32,000 nucleotides of DNA from Promethearchaeota archaeon. GTDB lineage: Archaea; Asgardarchaeota; Lokiarchaeia; Sigyniarchaeales; Promethearchaeaceae. How positions within the stretch are numbered: the stretch's first letter is position 1; each line of letters opens with the position of its first letter. A program made the translations under genes and the position numbers. This document shows positions 5,741-30,562 of this stretch, one piece after another. The notes beneath the pieces were generated by a model, which ran no database searches, was not told the origin of the DNA, and saw only the letters and a list, made by a program, of their open reading frames with translations. The DNA is taken from assembly GCA_016933055.1 (NCBI GenBank), contig JAFGBS010000001.1, forward strand, positions 240,001 to 272,000. Direction: 5' to 3'.

Positions 5741-7111
5741 TTATTTTTGAATACTTGAGATTCTGAAGGAAGGTAGTTTAATAGTTGGAACTTTAAAGGT
5801 AGAAGCATTGATTTTGGGATATGTTCCTAGTAAATCGATCCTGCCTAAAAAGCGAGGTGCTGCATCTGTGAATCGTAGTGTGCGAACTGGATATTTCACC
5901 TCTCCTTTTTCAATTTTCCACGTACCGTCTCTCGTTAATGCTGTAAAAATCCCCTCGGTCGGATTAACAGCATTTTGATAATGGAAATGAGTAATAAGAA
6001 GACCATCTTTTGTTTCGGAGATCATTTCGTTCAAATTGGAGTCTCCTTCCCCCACAAACATATTATTCGGAAATGGAAGTGAATGACCTTCTTCTTTATT
6101 GTGATGACCCGTACTTAACTTATTATCTCTTCCTGCAGTATAGCTATCATAGGCTAAATTTTTAATTATACCATTTTCTACTAAATCAATCTTCGATTTG
6201 GGAAAACCTTCATCATCAAAAAAAGTGCGGAATGTTGTACGTTCATCCAATGCGTCATCCCATAGATTAAATTTTTCCGAAAATAGTTTGGTGCCGATTT
6301 TATCCCGTAAGAACGAGATATATTCTTGGTACATTAAGGCACTAAAGCCAAAATAGGCAATATATACCAGCAATCCACTAAGTGCAGCCGGTTCCAAGAC
6401 AACTTCATAATCTCGAGGTTCTATCGCTTTCATCCCAAATCCTTCTGCTGCTTTTCTTGCAGCAATCTCCGCAACCTCTTTGAAATGTAATTTACCAAAA
6501 TCGGTATTATTATCCGCATACCATCCAGCAGTTTGTTCTTTTCCGTCTTCTGCTAGTATAGTTAAATTAACATTCGCATAGGTTCTTGCATCATAAGCTT
6601 CTACTCCCAATGAATTTAGTATAACTCGCTCCCCTATCCCATGAGAAATAGCCCCTGCAACTGCTTTTATGCGATCATCTACAGAATGTGCAGTATCAAT
6701 TACCATTTTTGCATGTTCAGCTCGTTGTTCTGGGGTTGTATTCATCGTATTTTTCGAAACCAAGTCTTCAATCGGTATGGAGTTATAAGGTAATGCTCCT
6801 GGTAAAGATTGAAAATCTTTGTCGTCTGGGGACATCTTTGCAATCTTAATAGCATTTTCTACCGCTTTTCTTATAGAATCATTATCTATTACTTCTACAT
6901 AAGTACTACCCTTCTTTTTCCCAACATAAATAATCGTTTGGATGGTAGCATGATGTTCTGCAACGTTTTGATCAATAATGCTATTAGCTAATCGTGTGAG
7001 AGCTGAATTTTGTATCCCTACAGTTACCTCGGTTTGGGTAGCTCCTAATTTTTCCGCCGTTTTCAAGACAAAACGACCTTTTTCTAATAACATTTCTTTG
7101 TCGAAATTCAT
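5741..7111 (-). CDS. pmbA: PmbA/TldE-family protein (non-catalytic partner of TldD)
   Basis: LTRLANSIIDQN, VVLEPAALSGL, FDDEGFP and LVENGIIKN. It lacks HExxxH and shares a TAATG overlap with tldD. Confidence 0.85.
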   Translation of the reverse strand: MNFDKEMLLEKGRFVLKTAEKLGATQTEVTVGIQNSALTRLANSIIDQNVAEHHATIQTIIYVGKKKGSTYVEVIDNDSIRKAVENAIKIAKMSPDDKDFQSLPGALPYNSIPIEDLVSKNTMNTTPEQRAEHAKMVIDTAHSVDDRIKAVAGAISHGIGERVILNSLGVEAYDARTYANVNLTILAEDGKEQTAGWYADNNTDFGKLHFKEVAEIAARKAAEGFGMKAIEPRDYEVVLEPAALSGLLVYIAYFGFSALMYQEYISFLRDKIGTKLFSEKFNLWDDALDERTTFRTFFDDEGFPKSKIDLVENGIIKNLAYDSYTAGRDNKLSTGHHNKEEGHSLPFPNNMFVGEGDSNLNEMISETKDGLLITHFHYQNAVNPTEGIFTALTRDGTWKIEKGEVKYPVRTLRFTDAAPRFLGRIDLLGTYPKINASTFKVPTIKLPSFRISSIQK

Positions 7112-8571
7112 TATTTTCCCTCCTCCTTAGTTATTCCTACATCTACATTTTGAAATCTTGCCATTCCTACACCATGTGCAACGTACATAACTTGTCCAGG
7201 TTGTCCCTTTCCGCAATTGGGAGTCCCCCAGATTCTCCAATCATCTTTTGTATGAGCGTCCATTGCATTCCAGAATTCAGGTGTTATTCCTGCATAGGTA
7301 GGGTTTTTGAAAATCTGACCTATTTCTCCGTTTACTATCTCCCATGCTATCTCAGTTCCGAATTGAAAATTCAAACGTTTATCATCTATGCTCCAACTTT
7401 TATTTGTTGATAAGAGAATACCATATTTCGTATCTGCAATTAACTCATCCCGGTTCCAATCTCCGGGTTCAAGATTTATATTTACCATTCGGATTAATGG
7501 TAGGTGTTGTGCATTATCCGCTCGCATACCAGCAGAACTTCGTTCAAGCCCAAGAATAGCAGCTGTTTCTCGGGAACTTTGATATCCAACAAAAAGCCCC
7601 TCTTTAATGAGTTCTGTTCTTCTTGCAGACACGCCCTCATCATCATAACCGAATGTACCCAACCCCCCATGTAAAGTTGAATCAGCGGTTATATTTACCA
7701 AATCGCTACCATATTTCAATTTGCCAACCAAATCAGGGGTCATAAAAGAAGTTCCCGCATATGCAGCTTCCGTTCCTAATACTCGATCTAATTCCGTAGG
7801 ATGCCCACAACTTTCGTGAACTTGGAGCATTAATTGATTTCCATCCAGTAATAACGTCATTTTTCCGGATGGACATTGTTTGGCATCTAGAAGCTGGACA
7901 GCTTCATCTACAGATTTCTCTGAGAGATCTATTAAATTCAGTTTTTCAAAATATTCAAATCCTTGAGTGGAGTAGTCTCCTCGGAAGGATGCAGGAAGGG
8001 ATCTGGTTTGGGGCTGTTTTCCTCCCTCGGCAACTGTAACTGATATCCCCCCTCCGCAAAATGTGATTTGTTGGTTAATAAAAGCCCCCTCATTACTTGC
8101 GAATATTTTATCTTCTCGAAATGCTCTGTAATCTGATTGTGTCATCTTCACTTTATCGGATGCTTCTCGCATTCGTTTATCTGCTTCCATCAGAATAGAG
8201 ATTTTATCTTCAGTAGGGATGGAAAATGGATCTTTTTTAAAAGGAGTTATGTAGGTATCTTCCACTGCAGGTTCATCCACAAATCGAATAGGTTTTTTTC
8301 GAGTTTTTCCTGAAGCTTTTGCAATTCGTACGGATAATTTTGCTACTCGTTCAATTTCTGGGGTATTTAACAAATAGGAACCAGCAAAACCTAATCCGCC
8401 ATTAGCTATGGTTCGGATTCCAAACCCTGTTCTTGTAGTAAGGTTTAAAACATCGATATTCCCGCGTTTGATGGTGATATCTTCATCCATGATGGTTACA
8501 ATGCGTATATCCGCATAGCTTGCACCTTCACCGACACACACATCAATCGCTTTTTGTGTGAGATCTTTCAT
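7111..8571 (-). CDS. tldD: TldD-family metalloprotease
   Basis: HESCGHPTELDR zinc motif, FGYDDEGV, PLIRMVN, FQFGTE and the C-terminal CGKGQPGQ. Confidence 0.92.
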   Translation of the reverse strand: MKDLTQKAIDVCVGEGASYADIRIVTIMDEDITIKRGNIDVLNLTTRTGFGIRTIANGGLGFAGSYLLNTPEIERVAKLSVRIAKASGKTRKKPIRFVDEPAVEDTYITPFKKDPFSIPTEDKISILMEADKRMREASDKVKMTQSDYRAFREDKIFASNEGAFINQQITFCGGGISVTVAEGGKQPQTRSLPASFRGDYSTQGFEYFEKLNLIDLSEKSVDEAVQLLDAKQCPSGKMTLLLDGNQLMLQVHESCGHPTELDRVLGTEAAYAGTSFMTPDLVGKLKYGSDLVNITADSTLHGGLGTFGYDDEGVSARRTELIKEGLFVGYQSSRETAAILGLERSSAGMRADNAQHLPLIRMVNINLEPGDWNRDELIADTKYGILLSTNKSWSIDDKRLNFQFGTEIAWEIVNGEIGQIFKNPTYAGITPEFWNAMDAHTKDDWRIWGTPNCGKGQPGQVMYVAHGVGMARFQNVDVGITKEEGK

Positions 8572-21703: not shown

Positions 21704-22240
21704 TTAGTGAATATCCTCCGAGGTTTTTAGAAATTTTAAGATGTCTTCGGTGGTGATGTTTTGTTTCTCAAATTCCACGATCTTTCCGTAATCGGTGCCA
21801 TCTTTCATTGGATTTAGTACAACATGTGTATTTGTGCGGATAACATATCCCGAACCTAAAATGATTTTAATTAATTCACTTAATTCTTTCCGGGTTTTGA
21901 ATCTAACAAGGACTAAAGCGTCATAATCACCCGTGACATCCCATACACCGAACACATTCGGGTGACGTGCGATTATTTCTTCAAATTCGATTAATTTCCC
22001 TTGTGAAATGGATATTTCTATTATTGCGATAATATCATATCCCAATTTCTCATAATCAATCTCGATGGTATATTTCTTTATAATTCCCTTATTTACTAAA
22101 CGATCAATGTGTTTCTTTATGGTGGTGTGTGATCGTTGAAGATTCTCCGCAATTTTAGTATATCCTTTTGTGGAATCTTTCGAAAGTTCACTGAGGATCA
22201 GTTTATCTAACTCATCGATTTCAATACCTCTACTTACCAT
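21704..22240 (-). CDS. Lrp/AsnC-family transcriptional regulator
   Basis: IDELDKLILSELSKDS...IAENL...IDRLVNKGIIKKYTIEID HTH, plus a RAM domain (VWDVTGDYD). Confidence 0.92.
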   Translation of the reverse strand: MVSRGIEIDELDKLILSELSKDSTKGYTKIAENLQRSHTTIKKHIDRLVNKGIIKKYTIEIDYEKLGYDIIAIIEISISQGKLIEFEEIIARHPNVFGVWDVTGDYDALVLVRFKTRKELSELIKIILGSGYVIRTNTHVVLNPMKDGTDYGKIVEFEKQNITTEDILKFLKTSEDIH

Positions 22241-22618
22241 GAATATGTAGTTGGATCACCTTCTTGAAATACGTTACGGATAAAGATCAGCGACACTATG
22301 AAATAAGAATGCTGTAGTTGACCAAACCACAAAATAATGTCAATTCATATTGTAATAACAGAATTTATGAAGGATGGAATACTTCTAGTTTCTAGATATG
22401 CATAATTTCCAACAAATTAGATAAAGATTCAATCGAATTCTTTGATCTGAGTGAAATAATAAAAAAAGTCTCAAAAAACTTTATTCAAATACTTATCTAA
22501 GAAAATAATTTACAATTATTCACTCATTTAATGATATATTAATAATGATTTATTACGGTTTTTTTAGTCCCGATCTCATATAACTACATCCAAAGAACCG
22601 ACAGAAATCTTCTAAATA

Positions 22619-22700
22619 CTATCATATTATGATAGCTTATTAAGAAAATTCTTTATAAATATGATAGATAAATCATATTACATATAAGACTTTTATATAA
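22619..22700. promoter_or_regulatory. Candidate operator sites and TATA box upstream of the glt/etf operon
   Basis: Palindrome CTATCATA-T-TATGATAG (22619-22635), inverted repeat AATATGAT-N6-ATCATATT (22658-22679) and TTTTATATAA (22691-22700). Confidence 0.5.
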
Positions 22701-22774
22701 CAGTGACATTTGTAAAACTATTGTCTACTCTTTACTATTCCCACTAAAAAAGGTTAAAAAACAGGTTATAGGTA

Positions 22775-25246
22775 ATGATTGAGCGCTTTAAGGATGCCGC
22801 TAGCTGGCGGTTATCTATAAAAAGATACAAAACCCCTTTCTCTATGAATCCTACAAAACTTAGATATCACAATAAGGCAGGATATGTTCACTTTGGGCAA
22901 CTACCTTTTGGTGAATACAAGGAAACTGACACCTATTGGACTTCTCAAATTATTTCCCAAATTCATTATGTTGCAGAAACAGGGAAAATTCCAGTCTCTG
23001 GAGGAGGATATGGCGGCCCTTTTGCAGGAGAAGGCTTTGATGGGATCTGGTTTGACATGAGTGAGATTGTACGTCCAACCCGGGACGGGATTCATGGAAG
23101 AGAAACAATTTCGACTCAGATCAACTTGGGTAGAATGCCTATTCATCTTTTATTCGATGGTAAGAAACTGAAATCTCCTCAAATGAAAATAATCAAACTG
23201 CCATTTCCTATGATCTTTACCCCGATTCCATTCCAATCTGAGAACTTGGAATTAAACTTGGCTGTGTTAAATGCTGCTCAGCAATTAAAAACTATTAGCA
23301 TCATTGAAGACTCCGTTTTTATAAAAGAATTTTTACCATTTATTCCTAATATTTGTATCCGATTATCCGATTACCCTTCGGGTATAGTCCAAGAACATAT
23401 CGAAAAGTTTCCTTTAATTGAAATTACTAACCTTAATTTCGTCACAGTGGCACGAGAGTTATCGAAAAACGCGCCCCTCTCGTTGTATGTCGAACCTACG
23501 GTAGATATAGAACACCAAATCCTAATAGCAGTGGAAAAGGGGATAGATATAATTCATTTGGGTTTTAATGAGGTAGGAAATTCACCTATAGGATTGATCC
23601 CTGATGTGTTGCGTAAAGTTCATTTGAGTCTTGTGGAGAAGGGATTGCGAAATTCGATTAGTATTCTTGTTAGTGGGGGGATAGCAGCTGCTGAACATAT
23701 TCCCAAGTCCATGATCTGCGGGGCGGATTGTACAGGATTGGATATAGCTCTGCAAGTTGCCTTAGGATGCGGTTTGTGGGCGGATATAAGGTTTCCGTGT
23801 CCAGTTGAACATGAAAAAATCGATCTTAAGCTAGGGGCGCAAAGAATAGTAAATCTCGTGGGATCTTGGCATGATCAGTTGTTAGAAGTACTTGGAGCAA
23901 TGGGAATTCGGGAAGTAAGAAGAATTCGTGGGGAAGTTGGAAGAGCTATATGGTATAAAGAACGACAAGCTCGATTCAAAAGTTTATTTGAGATTTCAAA
24001 AAAGTCCAGTTATATCCTTCCTAGCAATGAACTGAGTATAGGTGACCAAAGATGGCCTCGTTGGCTTTTAAATGCTACTTTTGAGATGGCACGAACAGGC
24101 AATATCCCTCAGAAAACGGAATATAAAATCGGGAAAAGTGGAGGAGGCTTCGATCGTCTGATTTTCAAATTTGAAGAACAAGATATTGAACTCCCTCAAA
24201 ATCCGAGTGCAGATTTATCGTTAAAACTCAATCATCGAAATGATGGATTACCGCAGCACATTATCCCTATGCCGATTTATTCGGGAGGGATGTCATTCGG
24301 TTCTATTTCATTAAATGTTATGCTAGGTCGGGCAATGGCAGCTCAAAAACTCTTTTCTTTTGTGAGTACAGGTGAGGGTGGGTATCCAGATGCGATTATT
24401 CCATATTCCAAACATGTCATAACCCAAGTAGCGACAGGATTGTTTGGGGTGAGCGAAGAGTCGATTGGTCGAGCTCCTATAGTAGAGTTCAAATACGCCC
24501 AAGGTGCAAAACCGGGATTAGGTGGTCATTTACTCGCCGATAAAGTAACAGAGGTGGTTGCAAAAGCTAGAGAATCCGTAAAAGGAATTAGTTTGTTTTC
24601 ACCCTTTCCGTTCCATTCGGTGTACTCAGTAGAAGATCACAAAAAACACATTGATTGGATAAAGCAAGTGAATCCTAAAGCACTCATTAATGTGAAAGTA
24701 TCCACCCCAAGCGATGTTGATATGGTTGCTGTAGGATCCTATTATGCAGGGGCTCATATTATAAATTTAGATGGATCTTATGGAGGTACAGGTGCTGCAC
24801 CTGAAATTAGTAAGAAAAATATTGCTATGCCGATTGAATATGCAGTTCCTTTTGTACACAAATTTATGACTGAAGAAGGATGTCGGGATGAAATTACATT
24901 AATTGCTTCAGGAGGGATTCGAAACGGTTATGATATTGCTAAAGCAATAGCTCTAGGGGCTGATGGGGCTCAAGTAGGCACTAGCGATCTTATTGCGCTA
25001 ACTTGTGAACGTTTAGGAGTTTGTGAAAAGGATGATGGGTGTCCCGCGGGACTCACAACAACAAATCCGGAATTTGCATGTATGGTCGATTCATGTTGGG
25101 CAAGAGATAGAATTGTAAACCTAAGACACGCATGGGGATCACAGCTAAAACAGATCCTCTACGCATTAGACATGAAACACATTTCAGAACTACGAGGTCG
25201 AACTGATACGCTTCTATATTTAGAAAAAGCCAAGAGGTCCCTCTAA
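22775..25246 (+). CDS. Glutamate-synthase-related FMN-binding subunit with two tandem GltB2-type barrels
   Basis: The second barrel has GGMSFGS, STGEGG, EFKYAQGAKPGLGGHL, ASGGIR and the Fe-S motif CERLGVCEKDDGC. The first barrel is degenerate (DMSEIVRPTRDG, VSGGIAAAEHIPKSMICGAD). Confidence 0.85.
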   Translation: MIERFKDAASWRLSIKRYKTPFSMNPTKLRYHNKAGYVHFGQLPFGEYKETDTYWTSQIISQIHYVAETGKIPVSGGGYGGPFAGEGFDGIWFDMSEIVRPTRDGIHGRETISTQINLGRMPIHLLFDGKKLKSPQMKIIKLPFPMIFTPIPFQSENLELNLAVLNAAQQLKTISIIEDSVFIKEFLPFIPNICIRLSDYPSGIVQEHIEKFPLIEITNLNFVTVARELSKNAPLSLYVEPTVDIEHQILIAVEKGIDIIHLGFNEVGNSPIGLIPDVLRKVHLSLVEKGLRNSISILVSGGIAAAEHIPKSMICGADCTGLDIALQVALGCGLWADIRFPCPVEHEKIDLKLGAQRIVNLVGSWHDQLLEVLGAMGIREVRRIRGEVGRAIWYKERQARFKSLFEISKKSSYILPSNELSIGDQRWPRWLLNATFEMARTGNIPQKTEYKIGKSGGGFDRLIFKFEEQDIELPQNPSADLSLKLNHRNDGLPQHIIPMPIYSGGMSFGSISLNVMLGRAMAAQKLFSFVSTGEGGYPDAIIPYSKHVITQVATGLFGVSEESIGRAPIVEFKYAQGAKPGLGGHLLADKVTEVVAKARESVKGISLFSPFPFHSVYSVEDHKKHIDWIKQVNPKALINVKVSTPSDVDMVAVGSYYAGAHIINLDGSYGGTGAAPEISKKNIAMPIEYAVPFVHKFMTEEGCRDEITLIASGGIRNGYDIAKAIALGADGAQVGTSDLIALTCERLGVCEKDDGCPAGLTTTNPEFACMVDSCWARDRIVNLRHAWGSQLKQILYALDMKHISELRGRTDTLLYLEKAKRSL

Positions 25247-27700
25247 ATGGATGAAGAATTAATAAAATCGTTTAAACGAGTTCAAGAAGGTGGTTGCGGT
25301 GTTGTAGCTTTCTGTTCAAATATACCCATTCGCGGAAAACATATGTTACCTCCAAGTAAACAAATGCATAACAGGGGAAACGGTAAGGGTGGGGGGATCT
25401 TATCTCTCGGATTTGACCCTAAAGAACTTGGTGTGACCAAAGAAATTCTTAATTCTCACTTTATTGTAGTCATTTCCTATCTTGATACAAAAATCCGCAA
25501 GGATTTAGAAAAAGAGTTCATTTATGGTCCCTTTGACGTTTATTCTTCACATGAATTTGAAACAAAGGACTATAAAAAGATGCACTTACTTGTTGAACCT
25601 CCAACCGTGGTTCGATATTTTTGTAAACCCAAAGCAGACAAATTGGAATCTTTCCAGATTGCTGCTGGGATGAAAGATGATGCCAAAGCTGAAGACGAGT
25701 TTGTCTTCCAAAATAGTTACAAATTAAATAAGAAATACTACGCATCTCTTGGGGATAAGAAAGCATTCGTCATGTCTCATGGGAAAAACATGATGGTGTT
25801 TAAGATTGTGGGATATGCAGAAGAAGCTATTGAATACTATCATTTAGAAAATCTCAAAGCGAATATCTGGTTGGCGCACCAACGTTATCCAACCAAAGGC
25901 AGAGTTTGGCATCCAGCAGGAGCACATCCTTTCATTGGTTTAAATGTTGCGCTTGCCCATAACGGGGATTTCGCAAATTACCATACTATCTGTGAATATT
26001 TAAAACAACACAATCGTGAAGGTTTGTTTTTGACAGATACTGAAGTTGCAGCCTTGTTATTCGATTACTGGGACCGAGAACTTGAATATCCGTTAGAATA
26101 CGTGCTAGAAGCAATGGCTCCGACCACTGAGCGAGATTTTACAAAATTACCTCTAGAGAAACAAGAAATTTATGAAGCGATTCAAAATGTCCATGTTCAG
26201 AATTCACCAGACGGTCCGTGGTTCTTTATCATCGGACGGAATGATGTCCAAAATGATACATTGCAATTACTCGGTATTACGGACACTAGTATGTTGCGAC
26301 CACAAGTATTTGCAGTTCAGGAAAATGATGGATTCCAAATCGGATTAATTGCCTCAGAAAAACAAGCAATTGATTCAATCCTTGAGAGTATTTCTTATGA
26401 AGAGAAGCGGATTTTTCCCATAGCAGATAAATACTGGAATGCTCGTGGTGGATCCTACGAGAATGGTGGTTCATTTATCTTCTCCATTAAAGATGGAAAA
26501 ATGGAATGCACTGACAAATTCGGAAATCCTATCCATGGAGAGCAAGGGAAAACCTATCGGGGGGAACCTACCGAAGAGTTTGTATATGATTCCCTCGAGG
26601 AAAAAGAACATTACATTGAGAGGATGAAGGAAATTTCCTACGGGAAAGTAATAGGATTATTGAGAAGTGTTGCGGAATTTGGAAAAGTTTCAGATGAATC
26701 TCGTGCAAAAGCGATCGAATTTTTAACCGAATTACTTGATGGAATCTATAGTGTCGGAGAGAAAAAACGCTCTATCATCAACAGCTTCATTCACAAATAT
26801 CTTTACAATGTATTAAAAGCTACTCCAACGGAGTCAGAAAAATATTCACATATAGAATATTCTGAATTGATTCCTGAACCCCGATCTAAAAAAGCTACGC
26901 TAATCTTGAATGGTCGGAATTATCCTCCTGAAGGTACTAATTCATTAGCCGCTAATATTGTTAAAGCTCACAAGATGGGATGGAACAAATTTATTGTATA
27001 CGATCTACACGGTCAACGATTTATCGGATGCGGATTTGGACTGAAAACTCCTCACATCCGAATCGATTCCTATGGCTCCATTGGAGATTACTCCGCATCG
27101 GGCATTAGCAATAGTGAATTACATGTGCATGGGAACGGACAAGACCAGTGGGCTCAGATCATGAAAGCAGGTAAACTCGTGGTATATGGAGATGTAGGTC
27201 AGGCATTCGGATATGGGGCTAAAGGTGGTGAATTTTATATCCGAGGGAATGCCGCAGGTCGTCCATTTATTAATGCTGTTGGGAAACCTCGTGTTGTTAT
27301 CAATGGGACATGTCTGGATTATCTAGCTGAATCTTTTATGGCGGGAGATCCTCATAAGGGAGGAGGATTCGTTGTGTTAAATGCGATACAAGTTATGCCC
27401 AATGGAACTATCGAAGATTGTCCTGAACCTTATCCGGGAGTAAATCTTTTTTCATTAGCTTCAGGAGGAGCGATATTTATCAGAGATCCTTATAATAAAG
27501 TTGAATCTGATCAACTAAATGGAGGAGAAATTATCCAAATTACTGCAAAAGACTGGGAACTCATCAAACCTTATTTACAAGAGAATGAGAAACTGTTTGG
27601 AATCACCATTGATATTCTTTTAACCAGAGATGGAATTTTACGACAGCCTAACGAAATCTATCGAAAAGTACAAGTAAGTAGTAATGAGGTGTTACACTAA
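25247..27700 (+). CDS. Glutamate synthase GATase-2 (GltB1) domain fused to a GXGXG (GltB3) domain
   Basis: Ntn Cys after a short propeptide (EGG/CGVVAF), HQRYPT, AHPF and HNGDFANY. C-terminal Gly-rich beta-helix repeats (GDVGQAFGYGAKGG, GTCLDYLAESFMAG). Confidence 0.85.
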   Translation: MDEELIKSFKRVQEGGCGVVAFCSNIPIRGKHMLPPSKQMHNRGNGKGGGILSLGFDPKELGVTKEILNSHFIVVISYLDTKIRKDLEKEFIYGPFDVYSSHEFETKDYKKMHLLVEPPTVVRYFCKPKADKLESFQIAAGMKDDAKAEDEFVFQNSYKLNKKYYASLGDKKAFVMSHGKNMMVFKIVGYAEEAIEYYHLENLKANIWLAHQRYPTKGRVWHPAGAHPFIGLNVALAHNGDFANYHTICEYLKQHNREGLFLTDTEVAALLFDYWDRELEYPLEYVLEAMAPTTERDFTKLPLEKQEIYEAIQNVHVQNSPDGPWFFIIGRNDVQNDTLQLLGITDTSMLRPQVFAVQENDGFQIGLIASEKQAIDSILESISYEEKRIFPIADKYWNARGGSYENGGSFIFSIKDGKMECTDKFGNPIHGEQGKTYRGEPTEEFVYDSLEEKEHYIERMKEISYGKVIGLLRSVAEFGKVSDESRAKAIEFLTELLDGIYSVGEKKRSIINSFIHKYLYNVLKATPTESEKYSHIEYSELIPEPRSKKATLILNGRNYPPEGTNSLAANIVKAHKMGWNKFIVYDLHGQRFIGCGFGLKTPHIRIDSYGSIGDYSASGISNSELHVHGNGQDQWAQIMKAGKLVVYGDVGQAFGYGAKGGEFYIRGNAAGRPFINAVGKPRVVINGTCLDYLAESFMAGDPHKGGGFVVLNAIQVMPNGTIEDCPEPYPGVNLFSLASGGAIFIRDPYNKVESDQLNGGEIIQITAKDWELIKPYLQENEKLFGITIDILLTRDGILRQPNEIYRKVQVSSNEVLH

Positions 27701-28497
27701 TGAAAAAGAATCTGAATACGATCGTTCTCATTAAACAAGTTCCTGATGCCACAGACGTGAAAACCGACCCAGAAACTGGTCGATTAATAAGAGATGGAGC
27801 TGTCACTATTAATCCCTTTGATATGTTTGCAATCGAGCAAGCCATCCAATTAAAAGAGCAATATGGTGGAAAAGTAATAGTTCTTACAATGGGTCCCCCC
27901 AACGCGAAATATTCCTTAGAGTTTTGCCTTGCAATGGGGGCAGATGATGCAATATTACTGACTGATCGCGCTTTTGCAGGGGCAGATACCATAGCTACAA
28001 GTTATACTTTGGCTAAAGCCATAGAGAAAGTCCCGGAGTTTGACATAATCTTCTGTGGTATAAAAACTACCGACGGAGATACTGGTCAAATTGGTGCAGA
28101 TGTTGCAGAATTCTTGAATTTGCCCAATATTTATTATGTAAATAAAATCCATGAAATAGCTGAAAATTCTATTATTGTGGAAAAACAATTTGAAGATCGC
28201 ATGCAAGTGGTTCAATCCGAATTACCTGTGGTAATATCCATGATTAAAGGAGCAAATACTCCTCGATTCCCGACTTTAGAAGGAAAAATGGAAGCTTTCC
28301 GAAAACCCGTTACAACTTACACAGCTACTGATGTACAAGCGGATCCAAAACAAATTGGAGCAGAGGGATCCCCTACTAAAGTACTACGCGTATTTCCGCC
28401 ACCAAAGCGTGAAAAAGGGCGTATTTTGCCGGAAAGTGATGACAATATAGCCGAATTAGTTCAATTTTTAAAAGAGAAAAAATTTGTTACCGAATAG
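27700..28497 (+). CDS. etfB: Electron transfer flavoprotein beta subunit (EtfB/FixA)
   Basis: IKQVPD, INPFD, TMGPP, DRAFAGADTIATS and TTDGDTGQ. TAATG overlap with the upstream gene. Confidence 0.95.
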   Translation: MKKNLNTIVLIKQVPDATDVKTDPETGRLIRDGAVTINPFDMFAIEQAIQLKEQYGGKVIVLTMGPPNAKYSLEFCLAMGADDAILLTDRAFAGADTIATSYTLAKAIEKVPEFDIIFCGIKTTDGDTGQIGADVAEFLNLPNIYYVNKIHEIAENSIIVEKQFEDRMQVVQSELPVVISMIKGANTPRFPTLEGKMEAFRKPVTTYTATDVQADPKQIGAEGSPTKVLRVFPPPKREKGRILPESDDNIAELVQFLKEKKFVTE

Positions 28498-28525
28498 GTG
28501 AAATGGAAAAGGAAAACCAAGAAAA

Positions 28526-29752
28526 ATGGAAGTAGAATTTGAGCAAAGTAAGTGTATCAAATGCGGACTTTGCAAGGAAGCCTGTAACTTTAATGCAATC
28601 ATATGGGATTCTGAAGGATATCCCATAATCACAGACGAGTGTAAGCTCTGTGGTGTATGTATACGTGCCTGTCCCGAAAAAGCCTTGAAATTGGATAGAC
28701 CCACCAAGAAAAAAAGAACTCGAATCGAGGATTATAAGGGAATTCTTGTTTTTGGAGAACAAAGAGACAGCCAGCTCCTTGATGTCACGTTTGAACTCCT
28801 CAGTAAAGGAAGAACAATGGCTGACGAGTTAGGAGAGGATCTTATTTGTGTAGCTTTAGGGAATAATATAATTAACCTTCAAGAAATTGTGAAATATGGT
28901 GCAGATCGCGTTTATTATTACAACCATCCGGATCTGAAAATTTATAACAACGAGGTTTATTCGAACATCGTCTCAAATTTTATCAAGAAAGTGAAACCTA
29001 GTATTTTTCTCATAGGTGCAACCTTTATTGGCAGAGAGTTAGGTCCACGCGTAGCAGCTCATTTACGAACCGGACTTACTGCAGATTGCACAGGATTAGA
29101 TATTACAGAAGAAAAATTACTATTGCAAACTCGACCTGCCTTCGGTGGCAATATTATGGCTTCCATTATCTGCCCCGACACCCGACCCCAATGCGCGACA
29201 ATTCGACCTAAAGTTATGAAAATGATTCCAATAGAAAGTCATACATGCAAATTTATCGAGAAATCAGTCCAAACTGAGGATCTCCACTCCAAAATCAAAG
29301 TTCTCGACGAAATATTGTTTGAACAAGGAGAAGATATTACCAATGCTGAAGTAATCGTTTCAGGTGGAATGGGATTAGGTAAAAAAGAGGGTTTTGACCT
29401 ATTAGAAGATCTTGCCAACAAGTTCGATGGTGGCAGTTCTGTTGGAGCATCTCGTCCGACGGTGGATGAGGGATGGGTTGACTATCCAAAACAAGTAGGA
29501 ATGTCCGGGAAAACCGTAACTCCTAAATTATATATTGCTTGCGGTATTTCCGGCTCAGTTCAGCATAAAGTTGGCATGGAAACTTCGGAAATAATTGTCG
29601 CGATCAACAAGGATGAGCACGCTCCAATTTTTGACATCGCGGATTTTGGTATCGTAGGAGATCTCTATACCGTAATACCCAAACTTATCGAGATGTTGCG
29701 GGTAACTGACCAAAAAATTTTAGTGCAAACGCCACAAAACGTCTGTAACTAA
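28526..29752 (+). CDS. etfA: Electron transfer flavoprotein alpha subunit with an N-terminal 2[4Fe-4S] ferredoxin domain
   Basis: CIKCGLCKEAC and CKLCGVCIRACP, then GLTADCT, RPAFGG, VGASR, QVGMSG, GISGSVQH and AINKD. Confidence 0.95.
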   Translation: MEVEFEQSKCIKCGLCKEACNFNAIIWDSEGYPIITDECKLCGVCIRACPEKALKLDRPTKKKRTRIEDYKGILVFGEQRDSQLLDVTFELLSKGRTMADELGEDLICVALGNNIINLQEIVKYGADRVYYYNHPDLKIYNNEVYSNIVSNFIKKVKPSIFLIGATFIGRELGPRVAAHLRTGLTADCTGLDITEEKLLLQTRPAFGGNIMASIICPDTRPQCATIRPKVMKMIPIESHTCKFIEKSVQTEDLHSKIKVLDEILFEQGEDITNAEVIVSGGMGLGKKEGFDLLEDLANKFDGGSSVGASRPTVDEGWVDYPKQVGMSGKTVTPKLYIACGISGSVQHKVGMETSEIIVAINKDEHAPIFDIADFGIVGDLYTVIPKLIEMLRVTDQKILVQTPQNVCN

Positions 29753-30067
29753 TTTAATTTCTAGAAATACTTTATTTTTTGTTATTTTTGCGATTTTTAG
29801 TAAATTCTCCGTAAAAATGGATCAAAATGATGATCAAATGATGCAATATTATCTATTTGATGTTTTTTACACAATGCGATATTTGTACAATCTACAAAAG
29901 AAACAACATTTTTAGATATTTTCGCATTCGAGGGTGCTGCGATTATTGTGTATTCGACTTATCCTCAAAATAATATTCCTTGGAGCATTGGTTGGTTTAT
30001 AATTGGTTCAATTTCAGTAATAATTGGAATACTTCTAAAAAAAAGAGAATTTAAAAAATAAACTCAA

Positions 30068-30562
30068 TTATAACCCAGTTTTCAAGGATTGTCCAAAAGT
30101 TTTAGCATTTTGGAGGTCCTCGTCTGAGGGATGCTTTCGAACGTAATCAGGTTTTTTTTTTTCGAATTTTATATCCCCCTTGCAACAATATCTCTCTACC
30201 AAAATTTCGATATTGGGATTCTTTCGAAGCTTCGATTCCATTTTTTCCCACATTATATCTTTAATGAATTTTGGAGGTTTTCCCTCTTCTTTTCCAAACG
30301 GATATTCTTCTTCTGGACCTCCACTTGTGAAGAATAACGCAACTTTGCCAGAATAGTTCTTCGCTATTTTTTTAAACATGTTTGCCCCCATTAACATTCC
30401 TGCAGCCATCCATGAACCTGCTACAACAAGATCATAACGTGAGAAGTCTTTTGGGCAATTTTTTTTATCATAAGCTTCACATCCCAATCCTTCTGCAATT
30501 TTTAATCCTACTGCTTTTGTATTTCCACTCTTACTATTATACAACACAATTGCGTTAACCAT
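30068..30562 (-). CDS. Flavodoxin-like protein
   Basis: VLYNSKSGNTKAVGLKIAEGL phosphate-binding loop and VALFFTSGG. Confidence 0.8.
   Translation of the reverse strand: MVNAIVLYNSKSGNTKAVGLKIAEGLGCEAYDKKNCPKDFSRYDLVVAGSWMAAGMLMGANMFKKIAKNYSGKVALFFTSGGPEEEYPFGKEEGKPPKFIKDIMWEKMESKLRKNPNIEILVERYCCKGDIKFEKKKPDYVRKHPSDEDLQNAKTFGQSLKTGL

Follow-up and report, generated by a model that had tools for sequence, protein, structure and literature searches.

Glutamate synthase (GltS) is the main gate through which nitrogen enters biomass, and its known electron inputs are the NAD(P)H-dependent subunit GltD and ferredoxin. In the NADPH-dependent GltB/GltD enzymes of Azospirillum brasilense (1EA0, 2VDC, and 6S6S) and Bacillus subtilis (7MFM), the alpha subunit GltB comprises four domains, including a glutaminase with an N-terminal nucleophile (Ntn) cysteine and a flavin mononucleotide (FMN) domain with the motif AQGAKPG, along with a three-cysteine [3Fe-4S] motif. 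The ferredoxin-dependent enzyme (Fd-GltS) of Synechocystis (1OFD/1OFE/1LLW) is an alpha-only chain of 1500 aa that contains FMN and [3Fe-4S] and lacks a reductase gene of its own, and in archaeal multi-piece GltS the domains are divided among genes of the GltB1/GltB2/GltB3 type. Electron-transferring flavoproteins (ETFs) with two flavin adenine dinucleotide (FAD) sites are known from other enzymes, namely, CarCDE of Acetobacterium woodii (6FAH), Bcd-EtfAB (5OL2 and 4KPU), and Ldh-EtfAB (LctBCD, 7QH2), the defining partner of which is an FAD dehydrogenase of the acyl-CoA dehydrogenase (ACAD) or GlcD fold. The present analysis concerns a stretch of 32,000 nt (G000:C16:240001-272000; hereafter, the window) from the assembly of a Loki-type Asgard archaeon (3.76 Mb, 91% complete). 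Four plus-strand open reading frames of the window form a tight gene set in the order P1, P2, EtfB, and EtfA, with P1 and P2 resembling the GltS alpha subunit in two pieces. Taken together, the four genes probably encode one ETF-fed, NADH-driven glutamate synthase with a dedicated two-FAD EtfAB as its electron source. No description of a pairing between an ETF and glutamate synthase was found in full-text literature searches or in a preprint on Asgard physiology (10.1101/2025.02.26.640444).

Composition of the P1-P2-EtfB-EtfA locus

The four genes (Table 1) follow each other closely. Reading of the sequence showed that the TAA of P1 is directly followed by the ATG of P2 (0 nt between), that P2 and EtfB share the junction TAATG (1-nt overlap), and that a spacer of 28 nt separates EtfB from EtfA. 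The P2-EtfB-EtfA junctions suggest translational coupling of the ETF genes to P2.

Table 1. Features of the window in and around the P1-P2-EtfB-EtfA gene set (positions within the window).
Feature	Position	Strand	Length	Assignment
PmbA/TldD metallopeptidase pair	5741-8571	-		
Lrp/AsnC-family regulator	21704..22240	-		Pfam AsnC_trans_reg + HTH_24; divergent from the operon
AT-rich divergent control region	22241..22774	none		From sequence and repeat scan
Palindrome CTATCATATTATGATAG	22619-22635		17 bp	Candidate operator; repeat scan
AATATGATAG copy	22658-22667			Part of candidate operator; repeat scan
P1	22775..25246	+	823 aa	GltS central domain + FMN (synthase) domain + three-Cys [3Fe-4S] motif
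P2	25247..27700	+	817 aa	Class-II (Ntn) glutamine amidotransferase + C-terminal GXGXG beta-helix; Pfam GATase_6, GXGXG
EtfB (small subunit)	27700..28497	+	265 aa	PF01012; second (bifurcating) FAD-site motifs
EtfA	28526..29752	+	408 aa	Pfam Fer4 x2 + ETF + ETF_alpha; N-terminal 2x[4Fe-4S] ferredoxin domain, CarE-like
T-rich stretch after EtfA stop	29760..29795	+		Likely archaeal terminator; from sequence
Flavodoxin-like gene	30068-30562	-		Pfam Flavodoxin_3; convergent

The synthase domain of P1 was recognized by Pfam (Glu_synthase, PF01645; E 5.5e-93, 312 bits), and phmmer aligned residues 501-821 with the GltS chains 7MFM_G, 2VDC_A, and 1EA0_A. The Glu_syn_central match was faint, and this diverged central domain is backed by the phmmer and Foldseek alignments to GltS large subunits. 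AlphaFold models of P1 and P2 (pLDDT 73 and 81.5, respectively) found their best Foldseek matches in the GltS large subunits 7MFM, 2VDC, 1EA0, 6S6S, 1OFD, and 1OFE; for P1, all of the top seven matches were GltS large subunits (TMq ~0.6, ~860 columns). The GltB proteins were thus the best matches in both sequence and fold, with an identity of ~35-40% (by eye) in the FMN domain and ~20% over the whole fold alignment. The cluster motif C744-x5-C750-x5-C756 of P1 aligns with the cluster cysteines of GltS, and 90-91 of 91 relatives retain it; the residues of the 2-oxoglutarate site, i.e., Q576, K579, R599, and E534, are invariant. The motif AQGAKPG is kept as well, and the GAKPGEGGQ of canonical GltS reads GAKPGLGGH in P1, the L and H occupying what we take to be the positions of E975 and Q978 of Fd-GltS. 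Three further cysteines, C315, C332, and C342, lie in the central domain (residues 315-342, window 23717-23800) and occur in ~90% of the relatives bearing this domain; to our knowledge, canonical GltB has no cofactor at this place.

P2 supplies the glutaminase. Its nucleophile, Cys17, lies in GGCGVVAF behind a 16-residue propeptide and is invariant in 66/66 sequences. The Arg of HQRYPT (R213), the oxyanion pair of HNGD (N239-G240), and the Asp of TDTE are kept in the alignment with PurF and GlmS and are likewise invariant. The C-terminal beta-helix (PF01493) scored 40.4 bits, the cut-off being 32.5. Judged by sequence and predicted fold, P1 and P2 together amount to a complete alpha subunit of GltS in two permuted pieces, since all alpha domains, the key residues, and GltS-like folds are present. 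The single-chain order of amidotransferase, central, FMN, and beta-helix domains is not found, P1 combining the central and FMN domains and P2 the amidotransferase and beta-helix; in other lineages, the equivalent of P1-P2 is divided into three genes. By every catalytic feature examined, P1-P2 belongs to the GltS alpha family, with a predicted GltS activity. Compared with the multi-piece archaeal GltS, the window differs in having two large fusion proteins, a central domain, and the ETF linkage. Many Asgard relatives encode a ~507-aa FMN protein that is 38-40% identical to the FMN domain of P1, a type that is absent from the source genome.

EtfB carries DRAFAGADTIATS and DGDTGQ, the same type of motifs as in 5OL2_B and 6FAH_B; DRAFAGADT-x-AT (T97/T100) and DGDTGQ were invariant in the EtfB alignment (A2). 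In EtfA, the two CxxCxxCxxxC motifs correspond to C10/13/16/20 and C39/42/45/49 and are invariant in 17 homologs. R203 of the bifurcating (Bf) site, located in QTRPAFGGN, and R310 of the electron-transfer (ET) site were invariant in the EtfA alignment (A3); they correspond to R165 and R273 of the R. palustris protein, from which their roles are taken (PMC8958531). The ETF group was assigned from solved structures and motifs, with Bcd-Etf 5OL2, CarDE 6FAH, LctBC 7QH2, A. fermentans 4KPU, and T. maritima 7KOE as the bifurcating reference set. EtfB scored 182-222 bits to 5OL2_B, 6FAH_B, 7QH2_B, 4KPU_B, and 7KOE_A as against 69-104 bits to the one-FAD proteins 1O94, 1EFV, and 1EFP, and EtfA scored 273-373 bits to the bifurcating ETFs as against 110-149 bits to one-FAD ETFs. 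CarE (6FAH_A) aligned to the full length of EtfA including the 2x[4Fe-4S] domain (373 bits), and CarD aligned to EtfB (216 bits). In its motifs and matches, EtfBA is a two-FAD, CarE-like ETF of the bifurcating type, for which bifurcation itself is a prediction.

The partner encoded next to this ETF is unlike those of its closest relatives. In CarCDE, the partner CarC is an FAD enzyme of the ACAD fold, whereas the linked partner in the window is an FMN/[3Fe-4S] GltS; Ldh-EtfAB and Bcd-EtfAB have the same two-FAD ETF type with other high-potential partners, and no FAD dehydrogenase of the ACAD or GlcD fold is adjacent to the window ETF. In comparison to GltB/GltD, the alpha subunit is present as two permuted proteins, no GltD is linked, and EtfAB stands in the place of the reductase subunit. 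Unlike Fd-GltS, the locus has a dedicated ETF predicted to be co-transcribed. The first-pass annotation, made from the DNA letters, had described split glutamate-synthase-like genes, their spacing, the cysteine motifs of EtfA, the DRAFAGADT and DGDTGQ motifs of EtfB, and an ETF of the type that includes bifurcating enzymes, and all of this was borne out.

The same annotation had pointed to the lack of a GltD-like NAD(P)H subunit, and no GltD was found in the 32,000-nt window. The single canonical GltD-like gene of the genome (475 aa) is located on another contig, C2. As the missing beta subunit, this candidate was rejected: the gene sits inside a Bfu-type cluster, and the protein is therefore not a likely partner of P1-P2. 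The cluster (L011, G000:C2:198612-205435) contains NuoE-like, NuoF-like, 1040-aa FdhA/PyrK-like, and GltD-like genes and is similar to NAD(P)H-ferredoxin modules of the Bfu/Stn type. P1 is the only strong PF01645 match in the genome, and the assembly contains no ETF genes besides EtfB-EtfA. Elsewhere, the genome encodes one glutamine synthetase and three members of the glutamate dehydrogenase (GDH) family.

Distribution of the P1-P2 family and of its ETF linkage

P1 belongs to a large family. More than 5000 homologs of ~825 aa, 51-65% identical, span uncultured Chloroflexota, Armatimonadota, Desulfobacterota, Nitrospirota, Bathyarchaeia, and Heimdall- and Promethearchaeota, and relatives of P1-P2 occur in at least 581 species genomes. 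The family, which comes mostly from uncultured anaerobes and carries generic names such as "glutamate synthase-related," appears uncharacterized. Gene neighborhoods were counted in the best 80 genome loci, in which P2 comes after P1 wherever the contig reaches far enough. In 16 of these loci, the glutamine synthetase gene glnA is found within 10 kb, and in 14, glutamine-dependent nadE; a strong GltD-like neighbor was found only at L024, on the opposite strand. The presence of glnA and nadE in or beside the cluster of relatives points to a role in nitrogen assimilation. Bacterial loci are associated with GAF-kinase/ANTAR regulators and archaeal loci with Lrp/AsnC. For example, in Armatimonadota and another bacterium (L006, L007, and L008), P1-P2 comes after a GAF histidine kinase and an ANTAR response regulator, and these pairs often stand directly behind glutamine-dependent NAD synthetase.

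Among 301 Asgard genomes, 22 contain the P1-P2 family, and seven of the 22, the source genome included, carry EtfBA directly after P2. The seven belong to four families; the linkage is found in G276, G288, G109, and G113 of the same order and in the other Asgard families of G053 and G025. The order P1-P2-EtfB-EtfA was also observed in the archaeal contigs L009/L015, L050, L109, L110, and L111, two of which include glnA in the cluster, with nadE added in L009. In three Anaerolineales loci, EtfB-EtfA lie directly before P1 in the reverse order, and their EtfA is without the ferredoxin domain. A scan of metagenome contigs with EtfA gave two fragments.

Trees were built with FastTree from limited sampling. 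In that of the P1 FMN domain, copies with a linked ETF fell into three clades with 4 changes, a number as low as this being reached in 0/500 label shuffles; the archaeal clade of the window has eight members, of which one stops at a contig edge and the other seven are all ETF-linked. In the EtfA tree, the window falls in a clade of 25 rows (support 99), all members of known context being linked to P1-P2. Other P1-P2-linked ETFs branch apart, so that the ETF side of the linkage is polyphyletic. ETFs that are linked to ACAD or Ldh genes in relatives fall outside the clade of the window. An EtfB/Fd-EtfA/GlcD-like set (FAD_binding_4 + FAD-oxidase_C) was noted in Bathyarchaeota (L112:8205-11581), the EtfA of which is 52% identical to that of the window; it has the appearance of an archaeal lactate dehydrogenase-ETF set of the Lct type. 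The neighborhood survey thus found the ETF and glt genes conserved together as a minority state within the family, in either of two gene orders and in several lineages independent of each other.

Control region and genes flanking the operon

The regulator gene of the Lrp/AsnC family lies 534 bp upstream of P1 and is divergent from it. The intergenic region contains a 17-bp perfect palindrome, CTATCATATTATGATAG, and a further copy of AATATGATAG, which together form a candidate operator with a putative regulatory role. Lrp/AsnC genes also adjoin the cluster in L009/L015, L042, L061, L100, L103, L109, and L110. Control by Lrp had been proposed from the first reading of the window, and an Lrp/AsnC gene does recur next to archaeal P1-P2 loci.

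At the other end, the T-rich stretch after the EtfA stop codon is likely the archaeal terminator that ends the four-gene operon, and the gene downstream of EtfA is convergent to it. This gene, just 3' of EtfA, is flavodoxin-like and could serve as a low-potential acceptor; it was not present in the related loci examined. The PmbA/TldD pair farther upstream in the window has no relation to the operon.

Electron supply of the enzyme and alternative explanations

In the ETF-fed synthase, NADH would reduce the FAD bound to EtfB, and electrons from EtfAB would reach the [3Fe-4S]/FMN pair of P1, replacing the supply from GltD or ferredoxin. A physical P1-P2-EtfAB complex with NADH as the donor would be expected for this route. 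The prediction of a complex of EtfA(78-408), EtfB, and P1(421-823) gave a score of 0.01, which speaks neither for nor against binding. Nitrogen assimilation in the source archaeon probably runs on NADH via EtfAB.

A further possibility, which we consider doubtful, is that the enzyme is a true electron-bifurcating glutamate synthase in which the glutamine:2-oxoglutarate amidotransferase (GOGAT) reaction, being strongly exergonic, is the high-potential branch. The overall reaction would then be 2 NADH + oxidized ferredoxin + glutamine + 2-oxoglutarate -> 2 NAD+ + reduced ferredoxin + 2 glutamate, and the CarE-like [4Fe-4S] domain of EtfA would be the low-potential exit to ferredoxin. By our own estimate from textbook free energies, the GOGAT acceptor couple lies at ~-60 mV, near the crotonyl-CoA and caffeyl-CoA couples. 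On this calculated rather than measured value, bifurcation would be thermodynamically plausible.

Several observations weigh against a dedicated ETF-fed synthase. Of the best 80 genome loci, 75 have no adjacent ETF, and neither do 15 of the 22 family-bearing Asgard genomes; at these ETF-less loci of bacteria and Asgard archaea no alternative reductase was found adjacent, only unrelated genes. Residues of P1 that separate ETF-linked from ETF-less copies amounted to a few weak positions (e.g., N514 and N661), with no signature. Since most members of the family have no adjacent ETF, the core P1-P2 enzyme probably works without it, on ferredoxin, and the mode of Fd-GltS is likely that of the ETF-less majority. 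For the same reason, the ETF is to be seen as an input module that the family can do without, not as a constant substitute for GltD. The suggestion of the first-pass annotation that the ETF takes the place of GltD is to be qualified in this sense.

The energetics of electron entry also tell against it. The [3Fe-4S] cluster of GltS has a potential of -280 mV (-190 mV with 2-oxoglutarate) and the FMN one of -240 mV (PMC8097209), and the anionic semiquinone/hydroquinone (ASQ/HQ) couples of the electron-transfer FAD in characterized bifurcating ETFs lie at -36 to -136 mV (PMC8958531). Entry by way of the electron-transfer FAD would therefore need uphill steps or retuning, the potentials of GltS being the more negative. 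In the lactate and crotonyl-CoA enzymes, electrons pass from one flavin to another; in GltS, by contrast, the normal point of entry is an Fe-S cluster. The cofactors may be retuned, substrate reduction may pull the uphill steps, or entry may take place by the low-potential [4Fe-4S] arm of EtfA.

The alternative that survives best is that P1-P2 is a self-contained ferredoxin-dependent GltS and that the co-transcribed EtfAB is a general NADH:ferredoxin/ACAD module of the Bcd-Etf type, without direct contact to P1-P2 or with only an indirect supply of reduced ferredoxin to it. The rarity of the linkage agrees with this alternative, as does the proximity of the ETF to CarDE, Bcd-Etf, and LctBC, all of which work with FAD dehydrogenases. 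The genome furthermore contains six ACAD genes (contigs C17, C15, C16, C2, and C11), none near an ETF, and a single ETF pair; a second duty of the ETF is conceivable on this ground, and it might also, or mainly, serve the ACADs. One of the ACAD genes sits 2 kb from a contig end, and with a completeness of the assembly of 91%, further ETF sets may have remained unassembled. Against a general module stand the coupled P2-EtfB-EtfA junctions and the recurrence of ETF adjacency in three P1 clades and two gene orders. A further indication comes from G276 and G109, genomes of the same order with three ETF sets each: their ACAD-adjacent sets are distant paralogs (200-368 bits), but the ortholog of the window ETF (~500 bits) sits in the cluster glnA-P1-P2-EtfB-EtfA-nadE. 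The possibility, raised at first reading, that the ETF partners an ACAD encoded elsewhere is accordingly countered by relatives in which the ACAD-linked ETFs are different paralogs, and we rate a general ETF module as improbable.

The weakest alternatives are a glutamate-oxidizing or confurcating enzyme of an amino-acid fermenter and a reductive aminase that depends on glutamine and acts on another 2-oxoacid. They would be in line with the peptide-based life that is thought to characterize Asgard archaea of the source type (10.1101/2025.02.26.640444), with the change from GAKPGEGGQ to GAKPGLGGH, and with Ldh-EtfAB, which is reported to show that ETFs of this kind can work in the confurcating direction (PMC9232219). 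The glutaminase nucleophile and oxyanion residues, invariant across the 66 sequences, would however be senseless in an oxidative enzyme, the recurrent neighbors are glnA and nadE, and three GDH-family genes are already available for glutamate oxidation. Glutamine hydrolysis, moreover, renders the GltS reaction effectively irreversible. The reverse, glutamate-oxidizing complex that the first-pass annotation had offered as an option is unlikely, and we regard this group of explanations as highly improbable.

If the four genes do encode one glutamate synthase fed by its own EtfAB, a dedicated ETF would be a third kind of electron input to GltS, and an Fe-S/FMN enzyme, neither of the acyl-CoA nor of the lactate type, would join the short list of ETF-dependent enzymes. 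If this synthase were also to bifurcate, it would represent a new class of bifurcating enzyme, the first with an anabolic driving reaction. An Asgard archaeon starved of energy would in that case regain reduced ferredoxin while assimilating nitrogen, making an anabolic process usable for energy conservation. This would bear on the balance of NADH and ferredoxin in the energy-limited Asgard archaea, no closer relatives of eukaryotes being known.

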